Below, piece after piece: positions 6,413-60,422 of a stretch of 64,000 nucleotides of DNA. Origin of the DNA: Octopus sinensis. Its lineage: Eukaryota. The position numbers and the translations under genes were made by a program. Location: contig NC_043000.1 of assembly GCF_006345805.1 (NCBI RefSeq), forward strand, positions 68,510,001-68,574,000, read 5' to 3'. The notes under the pieces were generated by a model. The model was not told the DNA's origin. It searched no databases and saw nothing but the letters and a program-made list of their open reading frames with translations. Position 1 is the first letter of the stretch. Each line of letters opens with the position of its first letter.

Positions 6413-6432
6413 TCTTAATATATAAAGCAGAG

Positions 6433-6473
<41 letters not shown>

Positions 6474-6510
6474 ATATGTTCCTTATGCATTTGAAATCTT
6501 AATATATAAA

Positions 6511-6573
<63 letters not shown>

Positions 6574-7585
6574 AGAAGAGAGAGTGTGTGTGTATGTGTA
6601 CGTGTCTGTGTTCCTTATGCATTCGAAAACTTAGTAGCCGATTTTGACGTATGGAGTATCAAATGATTCAGTAATCTTTCGGCTACCAAATGAACTTTAT
6701 TTTTTATTTACATATTTGCATTACAAGCATTTAACATTATAATTTTCTATAAGTTAACTATTGTAAACGACATTTTATACCACGCACGATAACGTCGATG
6801 ACGACGACACGCTCTATATGAGTATGTGTCTGTGAGTGTGCGTGTGTTTGTGTGTTCATTACGTACTTTAGTCCGATGACAGAGAAGTATATGTGCGTGA
6901 GTGTATGTAACGATGTATGTGTGTGTCAATATACATACATTTTTGTGACGACTCACACACACACGCGCGCGCACATATACACATCTAAAGACACACACAC
7001 ACACACACACACACACAGAGGGGGGGGGGGCAGAGATACGCCTGAGGTGTGCGTGAATGTATGTCGCTCTGTGTCTGTCTTAGTATATGTATATGACGTA
7101 TGAGGTATCAAAAGATTCAGTAGTCTTTCGGCTACCAAATGAATTTAATTTTAATTTACATATTTGTATTACAAAAAATTTAACAATCTTTCTATAAGCC
7201 AACTATCGTAAGTGATATTTCATACCACCACGACGACGACGTCACATTTTCCATATGAGTGTGTATGTGCCTGTGAGTGTGTGTATGTTTGTATGTTTGC
7301 GCGTTCGTTACGTACATTATAGACCGATTACTGGGAAGTATATGTGTGCGAGTGTATGTGACAGTGTATGTGTGTGAATATACATACATTTTTGCGAGGA
7401 CTGATACGCACACGCACATCTAAAGAGAAAGAGCTACACACATAGGGACAGAGATACGCCTGAGATGTGCGTGAATGTATGTCTCACTGTGTCTGTCTTA
7501 GTATAAGCATGTGAGTGTATGTCAGAGTGTATGTGTGTGCGACTGTTTGTGTGATCATTTTTGTACGTTACGCCTCAGACAATTA

Positions 7586-7616
<31 letters not shown>

Positions 7617-9717
7617 CACACACACACATCTACACATACATATATGTGTATGAGTGTGTATGTGTCTGTAAGTGTGTGTGTGTGTGTGTGTGTTTCTGTG
7701 TTCGTTACGTCTATAGTAAACTATAGTGAAAGAAATTTTACATCGTTTTAATGAGCCCACATCTGATGATGTAGCCATCCTTACGGTAGGTGATCCCCAT
7801 GAGTAAAGAAATTGGTATTTTTAAAAAATGTAAAGAAATAGGTAGGTGATCCCCATGAAAATCGTGATATTCTCATTCGTGCTCGAGATAACAACTTTAA
7901 ATGTGTTTCAGAGGCTCTTATGATGCTCTCCAGTAACCTCTTATTTTGTGGAATGGACAAGATGGATATCATTTTAATATTCCACAAATTGAACCTACAA
8001 CGCCAGCGCGAATTACTAAAAGGTGTCGTCAAATGACTTCTATTCTTACCAACTGATGTTAAGAACAAAACAATCAAATCAATTACACATGCATCGTGAT
8101 CTATTTCAACAATACCTGGTTGACATGTATGCTAAAGTTGTGAGTGAACGTCTTTTCTGCATTCGTAAGAATCAAAAAAAGTTAAGGGCTAAAAATTATG
8201 TTCATTTCTAAAATGCTCTGAGGACAGATGGTGATATTCAAAACATTGGGCAACGTATAATCCTCCCATCATATAATTCACAGATAGTCCTCGATATATG
8301 CGCGAATGAACAATCAGGAAAACCAGATCGTTTTGTCACTTTCACCTGCAATCCTAAATGGGAAGAAATCTAACCTTCTTCCAATAAAATCTAACCTTCT
8401 TCCAGTGTTGCATCTTTTGGTATTGCAGCTACCCTCCTCGATGGTGGAAGAACTGCTCATTCTATGTTCAAGCTCCCTCTAAACCTTGCAATGAAAGAAT
8501 CTCAAGTGTGCAACATTTCAAAAAACTCTGCAGTTCTCCCACAAACTTTCCTCATTGTTTGGGATGAGTACACAATGTCACACCGTGGAGCTCTAAAGGC
8601 ACTTGACCGTACCCTCTAAGACTAAAAAACAATAGCACGCTCGTGGAAGGGGTAACAGTTCTTGCAGATTTTCGTCAAACGTTGTCAGTTATCCCCAAAG
8701 GATCAAACACTGATGAGGTCAATGCATGCTTTAAAAAAATCGAACCTTTGGAGACATGTGAAAAAAGTTCATCTTACAAGCAGCATGAGAGTACTTCTAC
8801 AAGGTGATCATATGAGTTTCTTAAGATTGGTAATGGGATATTAACAATCATCTCAAGACTTCAGCTACATTAAATTACATGCGATCAAATGATTCTTTCT
8901 CTTGGGGACCTTATGGATAATGTATTTCCTAATTTATCTGTCAATTACACTGATGTAAGCTGGCTATGTGAAAGAGCTATACTGGCTCCAACTAATGAAA
9001 TGGTTGATAAACACAATCATGAACTTCTTCAAAATTTGGCAATTACATCAGAAATGACTTTTCGATCAACTGTCGATGAAGATCAGGTTGTTCAATATCT
9101 TGTTGAATCTCTGAACATACTCAAACCCACTGGGATGCTACCGCATAACTTGACACTAAGACTTTGTACTCCCATTATGTTGCTTAGGAATCTTGACCCA
9201 TCTCACCCGTGTAAAGGAACTCGCTTAATTGTTACTTCCATGAAGCCTCGTGTGCTACAGGCAACAATCATAATAGGTAGTCACAAAGGAGAAAATGTCT
9301 TTATTTCAAAAATTTCACTACAGATGTTCCATTTGAATTTAAGACGCTTCAGTTTCCAGTTAAATTAAGTTTTGGTATTTCAATTAACAAATCTCAGGGT
9401 CGATCCCTCAGGGTAGTTGCACTTGATCTCTTTACTACATGCTTCTCTTACGGCCAACTCTATGTTGCTTGCTCGCGACTTGGAAACGGCAGCAATTTAT
9501 TCATTTCGATACCAACAAAAAATTACACAATGAATATTGTTTACCCTGAGGTGCTCCAACATTAACAGATTTTCTGTTCGAAATTCTATTATGATTACAA
9601 TTTGGATATTTTAAAATAAGATATATATATTTTGAAATAATTGAGAAAATATATCTTTATATTTATTGTTTACTAATCTGAATAAGACCAGCAGTAACCG
9701 CCGGCTCATTTAGCTAG
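6413..9717 (+). mobile_element. Helitron with both termini, internally deleted
   Basis: A|TCTTAATATATAAAGCAG 5' end, degenerate GC hairpin then CTAG|T 3' end, RepHel remnant inside; 5' end repeated at 6497; about 450-bp tandem units at about 6640-7510. Confidence 0.85.
7845..9565 (+). pseudogene. Helitron Rep/PIF1-like helicase, multiply disrupted
   Basis: Motifs LFQQYLVDMYAKVVSERL, FVTFTCNPKWEEI, GIAATLLDGGRTAHS, LIVWDE, ERAILAPTN, IMLLRNLD, QFPVKLSFGISINKSQG, GQLYVACSR across stops and frameshifts. Confidence 0.92.
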
Positions 9718-12067: not shown

Positions 12068-12124
12068 TGCGTGCGTGTGTGTGTGTGAATTCAAGTTATG
12101 CAACAGGAGTAGTTCTATAGTGTT

Positions 12125-12832
12125 AGCATTACTAACATTACGTATTTACTGTATACGTGTTGCTTAAACGCCAGGAGCCGTGGTTCTTCGTCTGGCAAAG
12201 ATCCCTTTAAAGACGTACAGAAAAAGAAACCATAGAATACTTCAGAGTGAAGTAAACGATATCGGGCCGGAAGTAAAGACGAGAACGACAAATACATTAT
12301 TTCGCTGTTTTTGCAGCTTATCAATACCGCGCGCTCACCGAAACACGATGCAATTGCAAATCAACAAATAGAGTTTACACTATTCGTATAGCCCAACGAA
12401 TGTTGTCTATGTCCAGGTCGACTGTTTAAAGTCTTACCTGTTCAAAAAATTTTCCATGATGATAGTGGATTGTATCATATAATGTGATGTTATCTTTTAC
12501 GACTACAATTAAATAGAATTCTACCGAAATACCTGTCGTAAATTTTAAACGCCATTCATGTTCAGTTATTCTTTTCGTTCATGCTTCTGACTAGTGATTA
12601 TGCTTACGTTTCGGCAGTAAGGCGAGTGCGTCGCATTGATAAGCTTCAAAACAGTGAAACACTGTGACTGTCGCTCTCGTCTTTACTTCCATTGCGACTT
12701 AGTTTCTCCATGTTCTGAAGTATTTTGAATTTTTTAATATTATACGTCTTTCGAAGTATCTTTCGCGGACGAAAAACCGCAGCTCCAGGCATTTAAACAA
12801 CACACGAACGTTAAGTATGTAATATTAATTAT
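12125..12832. mobile_element. Old foldback element with about 90-bp diverged inverted ends
   Basis: 12125-12217 is a diverged reverse complement of 12743-12832. Confidence 0.6.
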
Positions 12833-12937
12833 GTTCACATACACATACATATATGAAGTGAGGAAAATAAACCAAATACTTAAACGATAAACCTTATATA
12901 CACACACACACATATATACATATACACACAGATAGCT

Positions 12938-24134: not shown

Positions 24135-24789
24135 GGATCTTTACTTTTTGACCGACAGATTTAAAAAATATTTTTTTGTAACTAAACATTTTCAAACTTC
24201 GACACTGGTAGAATGTGTCATATAAAGCATCTTTTACTCTTAGCATTTTTGAGAAAAAATTATATTTACGAAGTTATTTCACGTTAAAGTTCTCGTATTT
24301 CGGTAATTTCAACCAATCAATGACGTGTATTCAACTGAATAAAATTACAGCTGTTGTTTGTCAACAAGAACTTTCGGCGGTGTATATTTCGTTTGTCACT
24401 GTTATTTATGACAACTCTAACTCTAAAACCCTAACCCCTTAATCCTAACCCTAACCCTAAAACCCTAACCATAAACACTAAAACCTTAAAACCAGTACAA
24501 ACGCACGAACGATGTCATAAATAACAGTAACAAACGAAAAATACACCGCCGATAGTTGTTGACAAACAACGGCAGTAATTTTATTCAGCTGAATACACGT
24601 CATTGATTGGTTGAAATTACCGAAATACGACAACTTTAAAACGAAATAACTTCCTAAACATAAGTTTTTCTCAAATATGCTAAGAGTAAAAGATGTTTTA
24701 TATGACACATTCTACCAGTGTTTGAAGTTTGAACGTGTTTAGTTACAAAAAAATATTTTTTTAATCTGTCAATCAAAAGGTAAAGATCC
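24135..24789. mobile_element. Foldback DNA transposon (Merlin-like termini) with CCCTAA core, copy 2
   Basis: About 277-bp TIRs GGATCTTTAC...GTAAAGATCC; perfect 8-bp TSD GAATACAG at 24127-24134 and 24790-24797; CCCTAA repeats at about 24415-24490. Confidence 0.9.
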
Positions 24790-35397: not shown

Positions 35398-36303
35398 TTA
35401 TGCTAAGGCCGAGGTGGATATGCCGTTTGTCGTAGACGCGTTCAGAAGGGGCCTGTATTTTGTAATAAAGAGTGTTTCTTTACTAATTTGTTGGCTCCAG
35501 GTTGTATATTCCCTGAATTGGTAGAGGGGAAAAATCCTGAAGCTTGTTGTTTTGTTGTTGGCGCAAATGTCTATGTGTTGGCTGAATGCTATTTTTCTGT
35601 TTCGGGGAATTTTTATTTGGGATCTGTGCAGGGTCATTCTTTTATATAGACTACTTTTTGTTTGGCCTATGTATTGCTCTTGACGCCCAGAGCAGGTTAA
35701 TGTGTATATCAGGTTCTCCGAAGCACATGTGAAGTTGCTTTTCACTGTGAAGTGTTGTCCCTGTTTGAAGGAGAACTCTGATCCCTCAATTAGATAATCG
35801 CATATCCCACAATTGGGTCTTCCACATTTTTTTACTGTCGGCTTCTGTGTTGTTGAGCGTATTCGGGCTTGTGTTAGGAGACTTTTCATAGATTTGGGCT
35901 GTCACTTGCTTTTTATGATAGTGTGTATTTGGAGGATTAAGTTCATTCTGCGGTCCTTTTTTAGCAGGGGTATGTTTTGGAGGATCGTGTCGAAGGCTTC
36001 ATTGTTGAGAGGGTTGTGTGTGGAGATGTATGGTAAGGCTTTTGGTTGTAAATTTTTCTTTAATTTGGGATGTCTGAGTTCCTGGATGTTGAGTTGAAGG
36101 GCACGTTGAATGCATATGTCAATTAGTGAAGGTGGGTAGTTCCTGGTGATGAGTGTATCTTTTAGTTCATGTAGTCGTGTGTCTGGTGTTTGCATTAGAA
36201 ACTATAGTACATATCCTTTTTGCTAGATTGAAGGGAATGTTCATTCTGGTGTGTCTGGAGTGGCATGAATTGAATGGTAGATATTGCTTGGAATTCGTAG
36301 GCT

Positions 36304-36305
<2 letters not shown>
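35398..36305 (-). pseudogene. Penelope RT thumb + GIY-YIG endonuclease, frameshifted
   Basis: [34 protein letters not shown]; RNYPPSLI; CGRPNCGIC..FTCASENLIYTLTC..YIGQT..KRMTLH. Confidence 0.92.
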
Positions 36306-43835: not shown

Positions 43836-44333
43836 TGTTTGAACCTAAAGACAATTTCAAATCTGGCTGCCACCACGAGATTTCTGGTAAGTTAATGCTT
43901 CAGTTTATGTCAGGCGTGGAATTCGTTTTCTTAAAAGGCAACGACCACTGGGGAATACATAAATACGCAAACACATAATTGTTAATTCAAGCTTGCAAAA
44001 GTATTTCGCACCGAGGCAAGGGAGTTAAGTTCCTTTGTGCTGTGATAACGATATGAACAAGAGTCGTCTGGTCGCTTGCTAGAGCTAAACTATGTTGTTA
44101 GTTGCGGAAGAGTGAGTTGGTCTTGGGCGGATGATAGCAGTAGTGGCGGTGGTGCTGGTGGTGGAGGTGGTGGTGGTGATGGTGATGCGGGTCTTACAGT
44201 CGTTGTATGACAATATCTTTTTCGTAACCGTGGAGATATTAGAAAGTATTGGAATGTCTCTGTATTTCGAAAGGTCAGAAATGTTCACTTCTTTTTACTT
44301 TGTATATATATATATATATATATAATATATAAT

Positions 44334-44373
<40 letters not shown>

Positions 44374-44615
44374 TATATAATATATATACTAAGCAATATA
44401 GGATGAAGTCCCTTACTCTACAGCAAAGGATTCATCAGGAAGCGTGGGCAGTATATTTAAAAAAACCGTTACGGTTGCATATACATCATATATTAGGGCT
44501 AAGAGGGTTATTCTAAAGCCAAATACACTGTTTTATCCACTTATATCCGCTTGTTACAGGAAAATTGAAACTGAAAACGGGCAACTAACTAACCTTAGAA
44601 AATTTAAATTTCGTT

Positions 44616-44679
44616 ATCTCTATATTGAATCATTTCGGACTTAATCTTATAAAAAGATATATCCTTCTTCAGTAGAAAT
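44616..44679 (-). ncRNA. Type I hammerhead motif, left arm of the palindrome
   Basis: AUUUCUA-CUGAAGA-A-GGA...UCC-GAAA-UGAUUCAA-UA-UAGAGAU; stem III is one U shorter than in the right-arm copy. Confidence 0.65.
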
Positions 44680-44813
44680 TTCGATGGGATATAAATAAAA
44701 TCTCAAGCGTATGATCATGGAAAAAGCACAAGCTAAAAACACTAACTACGTTATGTTTTTAGCTTGTGCTTTTCCATGATCCTACGTGAGTATTTTATTT
44801 ATATGCCATCGAA

Positions 44814-44878
44814 ATTTCTACTGAAGAAGGAATATATCTTTTATAAGATTAAGTCCGAAATTGATTCAATATAGAGAT
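44814..44878 (+). ncRNA. Type I hammerhead ribozyme, right arm of the palindrome
   Basis: Stem I AUUUCUA/UAGAGAU, core CUGAAGA(A), stem II GGA/UCC with AUCUU/AAGAU extension, GAAA, stem III UUG auu CAA, predicted cleavage after AUA at 44871. Confidence 0.8.
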
Positions 44879-45072
44879 AACGAAATTTAAATTTTCTAAG
44901 GTTAGTTGCCCGTTTTCAGTTTCAATTTTCCTGTAACAAGCGGATATAATGGATAAAACAGTGTATTTGGCTTTAGAATAACCCTCTTTAGCCCTTAATT
45001 ATATGATGTATTATATATAAATTATATATTATATATATATTATATATATATATGTATTATATATATATAAAA

Positions 45073-45200
45073 TATCAGCCGAAATTGCTAGGATGATCCG
45101 GTTCTTGACTGAAGATTGAAGGCTTCGAATGTCCGTCCGTGTTTTTGTATCATCTTCTAAATGTTTTACACGTTCTTGTCCCAGTTTGTATTTTTCTACG
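45073..45200 (+). mobile_element. Short pLTR-type module between (TA)n tracts
   Basis: Reverse complement of 51600-51718 and of the 59400/60262 repeats. Confidence 0.7.
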
Positions 45201-45236
45201 TATAATATATATATATATATGTTATATTATATATAT

Positions 45237-51513: not shown

Positions 51514-52140
51514 AGTTAATCCAAACAAGAAAACACAGAAAAAAACACAGCAACGCGAGGACGTGGAACAATTAAAGTATTATTTGACGCTCATAAAAAA
51601 TACAAACTGGGACAAGAACGCAAAACATTTAGAAGACGATACAAAAAACACGGACGGGACATTCGAAGCCTTCAATCTTCAGTCAACAACCGGATCATCC
51701 TCGCAATTTCGGCTGATTAATCTTGAGATTGCTCCAAACCGGCCAGCCCCAAGGAAAAACTAAGCTAAGAGCATTAGATTACTTGGAAGAAAGCTTCGAA
51801 TGTATACGAAACAAGGACAGAAAAATGGACGATGTTACACGAATATGAAAACAAAAATAATACGTAAAAACAATAATAAGAATAATAATAACAGGACATC
51901 ACAAACAGGCGTCTTTCGACTAGGACGAATTAAACTCAGCTGGCGTGTTAGGAATGTGCCTTGGGACAGAGAATAAATGTTGGCGTTACCTCGACCGCTG
52001 CCAGATCTAAAAGGCCAGTAGTCAGTCAGTCAGTCACGTGTGAAGAGAAGAGAGAGGAAAAGAGGGACAGAGGAATTAAGGAGGGGGAGAAGAGATAATG
52101 GTGTCATTGAGACCCAAAGGTGTCAGGTAATGCTGAATAA
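51514..52140 (-). mobile_element. Non-autonomous Penelope-derived element
   Basis: 3' end (51514-51592) is the reverse complement of 58430-58500; 51598-51830 is homologous to 59415-59680; ends in (TA)n. Confidence 0.7.
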
Positions 52141-54037: not shown

Positions 54038-54157
54038 TATATATTCAGATGAATATGGTACTTAAGTTGAAGGCACCAGAATTTAGAATGGTATTATCCA
54101 TATAATTTAAAATAAGGCGATTATAGTCAAAATGAGCAATAAGAATATCCAGAGGTA

Positions 54158-54246
54158 ATGCAGTACGATCGTTTCATGCGACTACATTTAATTGAACAAT
54201 GCAAATATTACATCAATTTAAAATGTAGAGCAATCTTCAACTGCAT
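54158..54246 (-). ncRNA. Hammerhead motif, left arm (C3 changed to U)
   Basis: AUGCAG-UUGAAGA-long stem II-GAAA-CGAUCG-UA-CUGCAU. Confidence 0.55.
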
Positions 54247-54764
54247 AAAAATATAGAATTTGGTTAAATTGGAAGGACTCATTAGTATAATTTTATCCAA
54301 AATCACCAAGTGGATAAGGAGATAAACAAAGAACATGTTTTACCAACAACATCACAGTTGTAACTGAGATTTTTCAAAAAGGACACAGCTTTTCACTGAT
54401 TATTTCTGTTATTTAGATTTAATTAGGGGGGAGGGGAGTCAGATTAGATTTAATTATGGGGAACATCTTCTCTGAAGTATCTTCTCGCTGAACCAAATGG
54501 TTTTGCTTCAAAGAAATCTTGATTTATGATTTTGCCACTTAAATTGTCTATCTATTTTGCCTAGATTTGATAAACTAGCCTATAAATTAAAACTGAACTC
54601 CCCACCATAATTAAATCTAAATAACAGAAATAATCAATGAAAAGCAGTGTCTTTTTTTTAAAATCTCAGTTACAACTGTGATGTTGTTGGTAAAACATGT
54701 TCTTGTGATTTTGGATAAAGTTATACTGATGAGTCCTTCGAATGTAACCAAATACTATATTCTT

Positions 54765-54852
54765 ATGCAGCTGAAGATTGCTCTACTTTTTAATTAATGT
54801 AATGTTTGCATTGTTCAATTAAATGGAGTCGCATGAAACGATCGTACTGCAT
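54765..54852 (+). ncRNA. Type I hammerhead ribozyme, right arm
   Basis: Stem I AUGCAG/CUGCAU, CUGAAGA, 57-nt irregular stem II, GAAA, palindromic CGAUCG, predicted GUA cleavage after 54846. Confidence 0.75.
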
Positions 54853-55250
54853 TACCTCTGGATATCCTTGATGCTTATTTTGATTTTATATATATATTAA
54901 ATTTTGTGTCTGTCTATAAATATATGTATATGTATATATATCTTTATGAGTGTGTATTTGTGTGTGTATAACTGTATGTGTGCATGTGTTCGTTGGTTTT
55001 TTTTTCTGTATCATTCTATTTACATTATGTTGTTGTTCTAGATTCGAAGTAATTCCGTATAATATATTGAAATCTAATGATTTGGTAAACTTAACACGAA
55101 AATACATTCGTGCTTTATGTTAGAAATATACATACATAAGTATATGCTCTTGTGTGTGTATATATACTCACATACATACATGCATATACCTACATATGCA
55201 CATACATTCACATACATATACACACATATCGATACACATACCTCTATATA

Positions 55251-55285: not shown

Positions 55286-56592
55286 GCAGGCCTTCGACAC
55301 TTTCTTGACCTCCGCTCTAACCCTGTACCTGACACCTCCACACTCATTCGTCTGGCCGAACTTGTCCTTACTCTGAACTGCTTCTCGTTCGCGGGCGAGT
55401 TCTACCATCAGGTATCGGGAGTGGCCATGGGAACGCGAATGGGCCCCAACTATGCGAACCTGTTCGTTGGCTATGTTGAGGCCCAAAATATTCTCTAATT
55501 TCACTGGTCCCACTCCTGAACTATATGGTCGTTACATTGACGACATTATCGGTGCCACCTCACTCTCCCCTGAACATCTAGATTCCTTCTTCTCTTTCGT
55601 CCAATCTTTCCATCCTGCCCTCCACTTCACTTCCACTATCTCCAACACCTCTGTCTCCTTCCTCGACATTTCGGTTAGCATTCTTCACTCCACTCTTACC
55701 ACCTCCATTCACTACAAACACACAGACTCACACTCATACCTCAACTTCTCTTCCTCCCACCCAGAACACACTAAGCTTTCCATCCCCTATTCATTCCCAA
55801 TTCCTCCGTCTACGTAGGCTCTGTAGTGACGACCATGACTTTGAGACTCAGTCTCAACGTATGGCTCACCACTTCACCCTACGTGGATACCCCCTCACCA
55901 CTATCCCACCACCGCCTTTGCCAGAGCACGGTCCGTGGACCGTGTATCTGCTCTCTCTCCCCGAACCCGCCCTAGTCCTCTCCCGCATCCATTTTCCCCT
56001 CACTTACCACCCCCGACCCACGTCTCCAACGCACCATTCTTCGAGCTTTCCGTCATCTCCAGTCCGACCCGTCCACTTCACACTCTTCCCTAACCGACCC
56101 CTCCCCTCTTTCAAACGAGCCACAACCTTCGAGACCTTTGGTCCATAGCTCCTTCCCTGACCCTACCTCCCAACCCGGCTCGTTCCCCTGCTCCCGCCCC
56201 GTTGCCGCACTTGCCCTTACCTCTCCAACACCACCCCCCTCACTAGCACCCACCATCGACCCTATCCCATCATCCACTCCTTCACCTGCACCTCCAGCAA
56301 TATTATCTATTGCGTCTCTTGCTCTCTCTGCAATTCCTTGTACATCGGACAAACGGGACGTCGTTTGGCTGACCGGTTCGCGGAACACCTTTGTGACATC
56401 CACCTTGCGAACGACACACCGGTCTCACGCCATTTCCGCTCCACCGGTCACTCCTTGCAACACCTATCTGTGTTCGGTTTGTCCTTACACAGAGGCCATC
56501 CGGATTCCCGTTTGCGCCGTGAACAGGAATTAATCTTCTCTCTTCGCTCTTATACGCCATTTGGTCTCAACTCTCCCCCCCTCCTCATCTAA
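55286..56592 (+). pseudogene. Penelope RT (YIDD) + GIY-YIG endonuclease with frameshifts
   Basis: LVLTLNCFSFAGEFYHQVSGVAMGTRMGPNYANLF, RYIDDI, SFLDISV, HYKHTDSHSYLNFSSSHP, FTCTSSNIIYC, YIGQTGRRLADRFAEH. Confidence 0.95.
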
Positions 56593-59403: not shown

Positions 59404-60422
59404 GGTATGTAGAAAAATACAACATGGACAAGAACGTATAACTCTTAGAAGACGACACAATAAACACGGACAGGACATTCGAAACCCTCAGTCTTCAGTC
59501 AAGAACCGGATCATCGTAGTAATTTCGGCTGATTAATCTTGAGATTACTAGATCACGGCCAGCCCTCCAAGAAAAACTAAGCAACGAGCATTAGAAAAAC
59601 TAAGCTGGGAGCGTAGATTTCCTGGAAGAAGGATCGAATGCATACGAACACCAGGACAGCAAAAGGGACAGATATAAAAAAACAAAAAACAATAATGGAA
59701 TACAGAAACATGAAATACAGAAGCATTAACGGTGAAAACAACAAGTGTCTTACGACTGATAACAAGCAAACAAATTTTTTCTCTGGCGCATTGGAAAGGA
59801 GCCTTATCGGCGATGCCTATAGCGGCGGACGAAAAATAACGATGTTAACACGACGCTGGTGAGAAGCTGAAAGGCAGATTTCGGCCAGCAGTCACGTGAC
59901 AGAGAAGAGAGAAAAGAAAAGAAAGAGAAGCAAAGGAAGAGAGAGAGAGAGGAGGGACAAACGCAACAAAGAGAGAGAAGAGAGAGAAAGAAGGAATCAG
60001 AGAGGAGAAGCGATGGGTGTCGAAGATTGACCTGTGAGTGCAGAGCGAGACAAAGAAATAGGAGGGTAGTGGAAGATTAGACCAAAGAATCAGAGGAAAG
60101 AGAAGAGAAAAAGAGGATGAGTAGAGAGAAAAGAGAGAGAAGGGGACAGATCAAGTAAAAGTGAGAGAGAGAGAGAGAGAGACAAACAGAGAGTCGTACC
60201 AATTATTAAGAATATGTGCTCACATTAATGTTAAGAGGGTACGTGGCGCCTGGAATATATGTTAAGGTATGTAGAAAAATACAACATGGACAAGAACGTA
60301 TAACTCTTAGAAGACGACACAATAAACACGGACAGGACATTCGAAACCCTCAGTCTTCAGTCAAGAACCGGATCATCGTAGTAATTTCGGCTGATTAATC
60401 TTGAGATTACTAGATCACGGCC

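Follow-up and report, generated by a model that had tools for sequence, protein, structure and literature searches.

Background

In the genome of Octopus sinensis (assembly GCF_006345805.1, contig NC_043000.1, positions 68,510,001 to 68,574,000; we call this whole stretch of 64,000 nucleotides the window) a near-perfect palindrome lies within a (TA)n microsatellite and carries a hammerhead ribozyme motif on each strand. Two answers can be given to the question of what it is. It may be a mobile unit that processes itself, or it may be what remained after the insertion of something else, in particular after a cut in (TA)n whose two ends were both used for priming. The initial annotation of the locus named both answers and regarded the palindrome as a candidate for an undescribed system.

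The last suggestion is not supported: the parts of such a system are already in the literature. Inverted 5'-truncated copies with a tail in (TA)n were described for PLEs by Craig et al. 2021 (PMC8557442), who ascribe the tandem/inverted structure to “still undefined features” of the cycle and give a tail of 30-40 bp and a (TA)n bias. Head-to-head palindromic junctions were reported by Arkhipova et al. 2013 (PMC3846280) and read as self-priming on an antisense template. Pairs of hammerheads 100-700 bp apart on opposite strands, and PLE hammerheads with an extra nucleotide after position 9, are found in Cervera and de la Pena 2014 (PMC4209133). Metazoan non-LTR retrozymes, with circles in mussel, are the subject of Cervera and de la Pena 2020 (PMC7229834); a recent preprint treats retrozymes as non-autonomous PLE derivatives, one of nine tested having cleaved (Li et al., bioRxiv 10.64898/2026.07.22.740005). 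For the anole PLE Poseidon, Frangieh et al. 2024 (PMC11167929) predicted a dimer and found that hammerhead cleavage is unneeded and protein-assisted.

The current work traces the palindrome to its repeat family. We conclude that the window element is a 5'-truncated head-to-head insertion of a tandem hammerhead repeat family with a unit of about 494 bp, i.e., of a non-LTR retrozyme with the insertion anatomy of PLEs.

Results

Extent and structure of the element

The palindrome was described correctly as near-perfect. Its arms (44481-44746 and 44750-45011) are reverse complements of each other, the alignment having 254 matches, two mismatches and 12 gap events, and the 620-nt strand folds at -386 kcal/mol versus -115 +/- 4 for shuffled sequences. 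The right end given in the initial annotation (45011) was confirmed, while the left end (44481) was not: the left arm reaches 44387, about 95 bp further, and the element is 44387-45011. What had been taken for (TA)n to the left of 44481 is in fact the first 100 nt of the next repeat unit (44387-44484), a one-sided “tail” whose partner sequence is absent on the right side. Since the tail sits on one arm only, the two strands would not yield the same RNA, contrary to what had been supposed.

We numbered the repeat unit q1-q494 on a real unit, so that q494 is the commonest outer end, called A. In this numbering the layout is -(q100..q1, q494..q228) followed by +(q231..q494), and the window copy itself contains partial units only (Table 1). 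The GC content of 44001-45000 is 33%. Inside the arms there are no frames of at least 100 aa; one 101-aa frame spans (TA)n and the tail. Target duplications are unreadable inside the (TA)n microsatellite.

Table 1. Features of the element and its flanks (positions in the window; q, position in the repeat unit)
Feature	Position	Strand	Remarks
Left (TA)n target microsatellite	44303..44386		Tandem Repeats Finder 44303-44388, period 2
Tail, unit q1-q100, ends at outer end B, left arm only	44387..44484	-	98% identical to q1-100 of real unit
Stem-loop in tail, q50-q86	44402..44436	-	Predicted in both subfamilies; putative reverse transcriptase binding site
Left arm body, q494 down to q228	44485..44749	-	94% identity to real unit
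Type I hammerhead, one T short in stem III	44616-44679	-	Predicted cut between 44623 and 44622
Head-to-head junction q228 / q231, 3-nt loop, no overlap	44743..44753		Unique in genome
Right arm, q231-q494, ends at common outer end A	44750..45007	+	96% identity to real unit
Type I hammerhead	44814-44878	+	7-bp stem I, extra A after core, 4-bp stem III, predicted cut after 44871
Right (TA)-rich target	45008..45069		45008-45011 also match unit q1-q4

Relative to the reference unit the window arms have 13 indels in 355 nt and five in 259 nt, and seven other arms of the family have 0-6 in 223-561 nt. The window arms are thus richer in indels, and some of the differences between them may be assembly errors.

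Hammerhead motifs

In a descriptor scan of all 64 kb of the window, type I hammerheads turned up just twice, at the two places annotated initially (Table 1). The scan and the fold agree with what was said of the plus-strand copy, namely a 7-bp stem I, an intact core and a true stem III. This copy has one extra A before stem II and a G-C pair at the base of stem II. Stem III of the minus-strand copy, with one T missing, failed to form in a constrained fold; the same one-base loss recurs in three of the 209 motif hits in the fetched loci. An Rfam scan of the window at E<=10 recognised neither hammerhead and returned chance miRNA-like matches only.

For the isolated plus-strand hammerhead the active fold has -7.6 versus -10.9 kcal/mol for an alternative fold, so that the inactive one is favored by 3.3, and the predicted rod fold of the palindrome buries both hammerheads. 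A rod RNA, its competition with ribozyme folding and an action of ADAR or Dicer on it, as had been suggested, would require read-through transcription of the window locus.

Within the family the core is intact in 196 and the core together with stem III in 170 of the 209 motif hits, among which are some damaged copies and a few that are off-target. An A-C mismatch at hammerhead position 10.1/11.1 occurs in one subfamily. By-eye inspection of q150-190 revealed no second ribozyme.

The repeat family

The right arm has 1178 first-look candidates in its own 2.72-Gb genome, and most of the 40 that were scored show 96-97% identity. The exact 21-nt pattern of the hammerhead core has 383 matches in the genome and its reversed control has none. 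At many loci the copies form tandem arrays of the 494-bp unit with one hammerhead per unit, and the longest insertions contain up to about nine units. The unit RNA is predicted to be strongly self-paired (circular fold -126 kcal/mol versus -96 +/- 5 for 40 shuffles, z -5.9). Arrays are homogeneous (differences of 1% within versus 15% between arrays), which fits a circular and a multimeric template alike. It is likely that the hammerhead serves the normal cycle of the family, from multimer to monomer or circle, rather than the window locus.

Among the sequencing runs that carry the family none is on record as RNA, and the comparison was made with contigs assembled from the runs. One 525-nt contig, from a run only guessed to be RNA, makes one full turn of the unit. 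We rejected it as evidence for a circle because tandem DNA gives the same picture, and we rejected its A>G differences as editing because they include q213, a genomic polymorphism.

The centre of the palindrome is not shared

A propagating palindrome is expected to have the same centre in all its copies. The centre of the window palindrome has a single match in 2.72 Gb, which is the window itself. Opposed hammerhead cores within 500 nt of each other occur at 18 loci with spans of 89 to 440 nt, and their centres differ. The unit that repeats in this genome is the 494-bp monomer with one hammerhead, and the unique centre together with the variable centres of the 18 head-to-head pairs refutes the idea of a self-processing palindromic unit. 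Such a unit, either MITE-like or a viroid-like rod with a ribozyme in each polarity, would agree with the very stable rod and with the motif on both strands. It would not agree with the one-sided tail, with the missing base in stem III of the minus-strand hammerhead or with the burial of both hammerheads in the rod, and we give this explanation next to no credence.

Two outer ends, A and B

Insertion into (TA)n can be read from the flanks of the family loci. End A running into (TA)n has 163 exact junctions in the genome, and one variant of the other outer end, B, has 13. We took 96 of the first 100 junctions listed among the 163, a sample that is selected for (TA)n on the A side. Merging of duplicates (locus L038 mirrors L036, and L120 holds two copies) left 94 insertions, and 93 were resolved, as L080 ran off its locus.

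An inverted arm is present in 36 of the 93 and absent from 57, two of the latter keeping just a short remnant of end B. The far end of the inverted arm lies at q85-104 in 34 cases, at q45 in two and at A in none. The pattern is the same in loci chosen in other ways. When loci were picked by two opposed hammerheads alone, 12 of the 13 with both ends in view pair A with B and one has neither; those picked by one B variant comprise ten head-to-head and three simple insertions. All head-to-head loci together number 55: an end is out of view in five, A is paired with B in 49, one (L071) has neither end, and A is never paired with A. Accordingly, 49 of the 50 loci with both ends in view have the tail on one end only, its length being about 100 or 45 nt. 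The outer ends are thus fixed, about 100 nt apart, and the 5' truncation is variable. Insertions with A only are the commonest and those with B only the rarest, so A is likely the first priming site.

The same counts bear on the concern that the palindrome is an artefact of assembly or of a fold-back read. The excess of indels in the window arms could be a sign of this, none of the run contigs compared spans the locus, and another array of the family is mirrored near the start of contig C4. Nevertheless, the left and right flanks of the element differ, its arms differ by the tail, and on either side it ends at one of the two sites found in 49 of the 50 head-to-head loci with both ends in view, ends that a read artefact would not choose. 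We therefore regard an artefact as highly improbable. The mirrored array itself (L036 and L038, at about 10-12 kb and 86-88 kb of C4) repeats the same array and flanks in mirror orientation and is either a large inverted duplication or an assembly artefact.

Overlap of the arms and their alleles

The two arms of an insertion carry the same allele at 413 of the 422 polymorphic sites that they share, while permuted pairs agree at 67% on average and at 85% at most. Arms that do not overlap also belong to the same subfamily (e.g., L079, L104, L106, L132 and L151). This fits one RNA template or, equally, one source locus active at a time.

We compared the extent of the arms in a hand-made table of 47 loci, leaving out L034 (complex), L012, L050, L062, L063, L071, L074 and L075. 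In 19 loci, including the window, the B arm contains the A arm; in five the A arm contains the B arm; and in 23 neither contains the other. These counts help to judge fold-back, in which a B-primed cDNA snapped back at q228-231, copied itself and joined the other target end at the TA-like site A. Fold-back is possible for the window copy, since its short arm is wholly inside the long one, and the window junction is a hairpin with a 3-nt loop. Locus L040, with four full units in both arms and a 6-nt self-templated insert at the junction, also speaks for it. However, fold-back is unable to produce the last group of 23, where each arm has sequence that the other lacks, and so it would have to be a second route.

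Near-symmetric centres are a further argument for fold-back. With an offset of up to 6 nt, a limit picked after the data were seen, they occur in six of 40 loci that were not centre-selected versus 1.0 by permutation (P=0.0004); leaving out the window gives five of 39 (P=0.002). When only the A-selected set is used, the excess is smaller (3/35, P=0.04 at 6 nt and P=0.11 at 10 nt). A trailing polymerase that catches the first one on a single RNA yields equal symmetry. Symmetric centres would thus be given either by a second polymerase catching up on one RNA or by fold-back in a minority of events. As the origin of the window copy we consider fold-back unlikely, though it deserves more weight than the other alternatives.

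In classic L1-type twin priming the second primer lands upstream, and the two cDNAs copy abutting parts of one RNA. The nine of 47 loci in which the inverted arm stays within the tail and does not overlap the A arm look like this. In the other 38, however, the B arm extends past A and the templates overlap, and the A arm starts beside the outer end of B in only two of 47. Two independent insertions into one (TA)n tract are conceivable too, as (TA)n tracts here collect several insertions (one is a neighbor of the element at 45074-45201), but then (TA)n would be expected at the junction, where it is absent, and A+A pairs would be expected among the 36 inverted insertions, where there are none; moreover, the arms share alleles. 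Taken together, twin priming and independent insertions seem very improbable, and where the arms overlap, as in the window, these observations largely refute them.

At most junctions the arms overlap by 0-8 nt or are separated by a few inserted bases. Inner ends are spread over the unit with a cluster at q185-198 (15/125), where homology with a sister family also starts; this may be the 5' end of the RNA or a stop of the polymerase. Only two of the 125 inner ends are at the hammerhead cut, which is no enrichment and suggests that the RNA used as template was uncleaved or circular.

The tail stem-loop and a sister family

The predicted tail stem-loop differs between the subfamilies by a double change from G-U to U-A at q63/q72. 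A sister family, about 70% alike (3815 candidates, unit of about 479 bp, hammerhead core kept), has a predicted hairpin of different sequence at the equivalent position of the tail. Double-sided changes between the two families are also seen in hammerhead stems I and III. To judge from these sequences, master copies seem to have kept both the fold of the hammerhead and the hairpin of the tail.

The sister family was sampled at 28 loci (27 if L226 and L227 are one), with the tail included in the query, and both ends were read in eight inverted copies. It has two ends of its own at equivalent places, and in all eight clear inverted copies one outer end is the tail end and the other the A-equivalent end. 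One copy (L219) has a symmetric centre.

Candidate enzyme

The PF01541 profile matched 147 of the 150 scored among 5029 candidates in the genome. Several of the matches lie in intact 781-aa frames that contain a reverse transcriptase (RT), then a CxxxxCxxC motif, then GIY-YIG, an order described for the Neptune and Nematis clades (PMC8557442). Copies of these frames end in (TA)n. Among 42 GIY-YIG loci (30 loci and 12 wider regions, of the 5029 candidates) no autonomous PLE shares the end of our family; the best match in this partner search was the sister non-coding family.

The abundant 781-aa PLE family has, by eye, a hammerhead-like fold near its 3' end (L199 ~920-960, L176 ~2360-2400). Its core starts with U, not C, has A at position 8 and resembles the covariant core in PMC4209133. 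In L199 a 1.67-kb direct repeat (484-2153 and 6417-8091, 99%) consisting of the PLE 3' end, flank and a sister-family copy surrounds an intact PLE frame; 3' transduction or local duplication is possible. The window contains fragments that resemble the 781-aa frame at 35437-36304 (-) and 55361-56451 (+), with 60% identity in the thumb/endonuclease part and 32-51% in an older RT-to-endonuclease remnant.

Other repeats

The neighbor at 45074-45201 (+), in the same microsatellite, is a 3' fragment of another high-copy repeat (1994 candidates) with three more copies in the window (51596-51717, 59413-59533 and 60255-60395). Its right end is fixed in (TA)n, its left ends are variable, and it has a degenerate hammerhead-like motif; it is likely another PLE end. 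Older inverted repeats adjoin (TA)n at 54127-54883 (84%) and 12121-12839 (71%); they may be head-to-head PLE insertions of other families that have since decayed. At 949-1879 and 24135-24789 lie two copies of an element in which 279-bp terminal inverted repeats enclose degenerate TTAGGG-like repeats; it looks like a MITE-type DNA element unrelated to the palindrome. Elsewhere in the genome, head-to-head inverted repeats in L201 (7553-8205) and L202 (7686-8338) carry the hammerhead of another family on both strands, so the two-strand layout recurs across families.

Discussion

Of the two origins named at the outset, our results support the PLE-related one, in which both ends of a cut in (TA)n are used for priming: the ends follow the A+B pattern and the centres are variable. 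In our judgment the window element is probably one insertion into (TA)n by a PLE RT/GIY-YIG endonuclease that primed both target ends on one RNA. We infer the enzymatic steps from what was observed, namely the family, its tandem unit, ends A and B, the variable centres, the allele match of the arms and the covariation.

The steps would be as follows. The PLE enzyme would cut both strands of (TA)n. One target 3' end would start cDNA at site A (q494/q1-4), while for the other the start would be site B, at q85-104 or rarely q45, immediately beyond the conserved stem-loop. As template we envisage a circle or a multimer that was left uncleaved. Both cDNAs would be extended toward the 5' side of the RNA, stop, and become linked head to head, in most cases by microhomology of 0-8 nt. 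In the window the two cDNAs would have stopped 3 nt apart, leaving a near-perfect palindrome and, as a by-product, one hammerhead per strand. Such a pair would arise whenever both cDNAs pass q296.

Priming of both target ends is favored by the far end never being A in the 36 A-selected inverted insertions, by the alleles shared between arms, and by the same two-end rule in the sister family. The anole PLE in vitro argues in the same direction, as both strands are cut and extended there from two internal starts that bound the tail (PMC11167929), and so do the intact RT and GIY-YIG frames in this genome with copies that end in (TA)n. The proposal is weakened by the partner search, in which no PLE among the 42 GIY-YIG loci shares the family's end, and by the anole study, where the start site is equal between strands and second-strand synthesis is assumed. 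It is also weakened by the published tails of 30-40 bp (PMC8557442) versus about 100 here and by L071 with neither end.

A more specific version, which we put forward tentatively and hold at somewhat less than even chances, is that a PLE dimer on one retrozyme RNA primes the two target ends at different fixed sites that bracket the conserved stem-loop, and that the downstream polymerase sometimes catches the first one, giving perfect palindromes. If true, two-site priming by a PLE dimer would explain, with no need for an antisense template, why PLEs have head-to-head pLTRs and a tail on one side only, a structure that has long lacked an explanation; the present family, being small, young and free of protein, would be a ready substrate for testing it. 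What ties the genomic pattern to the two start sites found in vitro is the A+B rule, together with the allele match and the 23 of 47 arm pairs that fold-back is unable to produce, and the two-site pattern yields a sharp prediction for the existing in vitro PLE system. Our search of the literature, which covered few subscription papers and main texts without supplements and does not prove absence, found neither counts of A+B pairing nor two-site priming proposed for head-to-head PLEs. As an object the window element is ordinary, one among dozens of head-to-head insertions of its family; what makes it useful is the evidence that it adds to a question about PLEs that is still open. Head-to-head insertions also supply the genome steadily with long perfect inverted repeats.

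Comparison with known systems

The family resembles endonuclease-bearing PLEs in its 5' truncation, partial tandems, inverted 5'-truncated copy, head-to-head junction, tail at one end and preference for (TA)n (PMC8557442, PMC3846280). It differs from them in having no ORF and in its tail of about 100 (or 45) nt versus 30-40 (PMC8557442). With the anole Poseidon PLE it shares an AT-rich target and, on the proposed mechanism, two internal starts bounding the tail, cutting and extension of both strands and an uncleaved RNA template. A difference between strands and a head-to-head product are unreported in the sections of PMC11167929 cited here, whereas in our family the two ends always use different sites. 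Unlike the PLE hammerheads described in PMC4209133, the hammerhead here has a 4-bp stem III and a non-palindromic loop, so that a monomer could in principle fold.

Metazoan non-LTR retrozymes are similar in having a short AT-rich non-coding tandem unit with one type I hammerhead each, in self-paired RNA (predicted here) and in co-occurrence with autonomous PLEs (PMC7229834). The present family is known from genomic sequence, and its cleavage and circles are predictions. Its unit of 494 bp is longer than the 150-450 bp given in 2020 and falls inside the 51-972 bp of the 2026 preprint. Inverted copies are present here, while the word “inverted” is absent from the available text of the 2020 paper. 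The preprint leans to local tandem amplification, whereas the dispersed arrays described here have fixed ends in (TA)n, which points to retrotransposed multimers as the source of dispersed retrozyme arrays.
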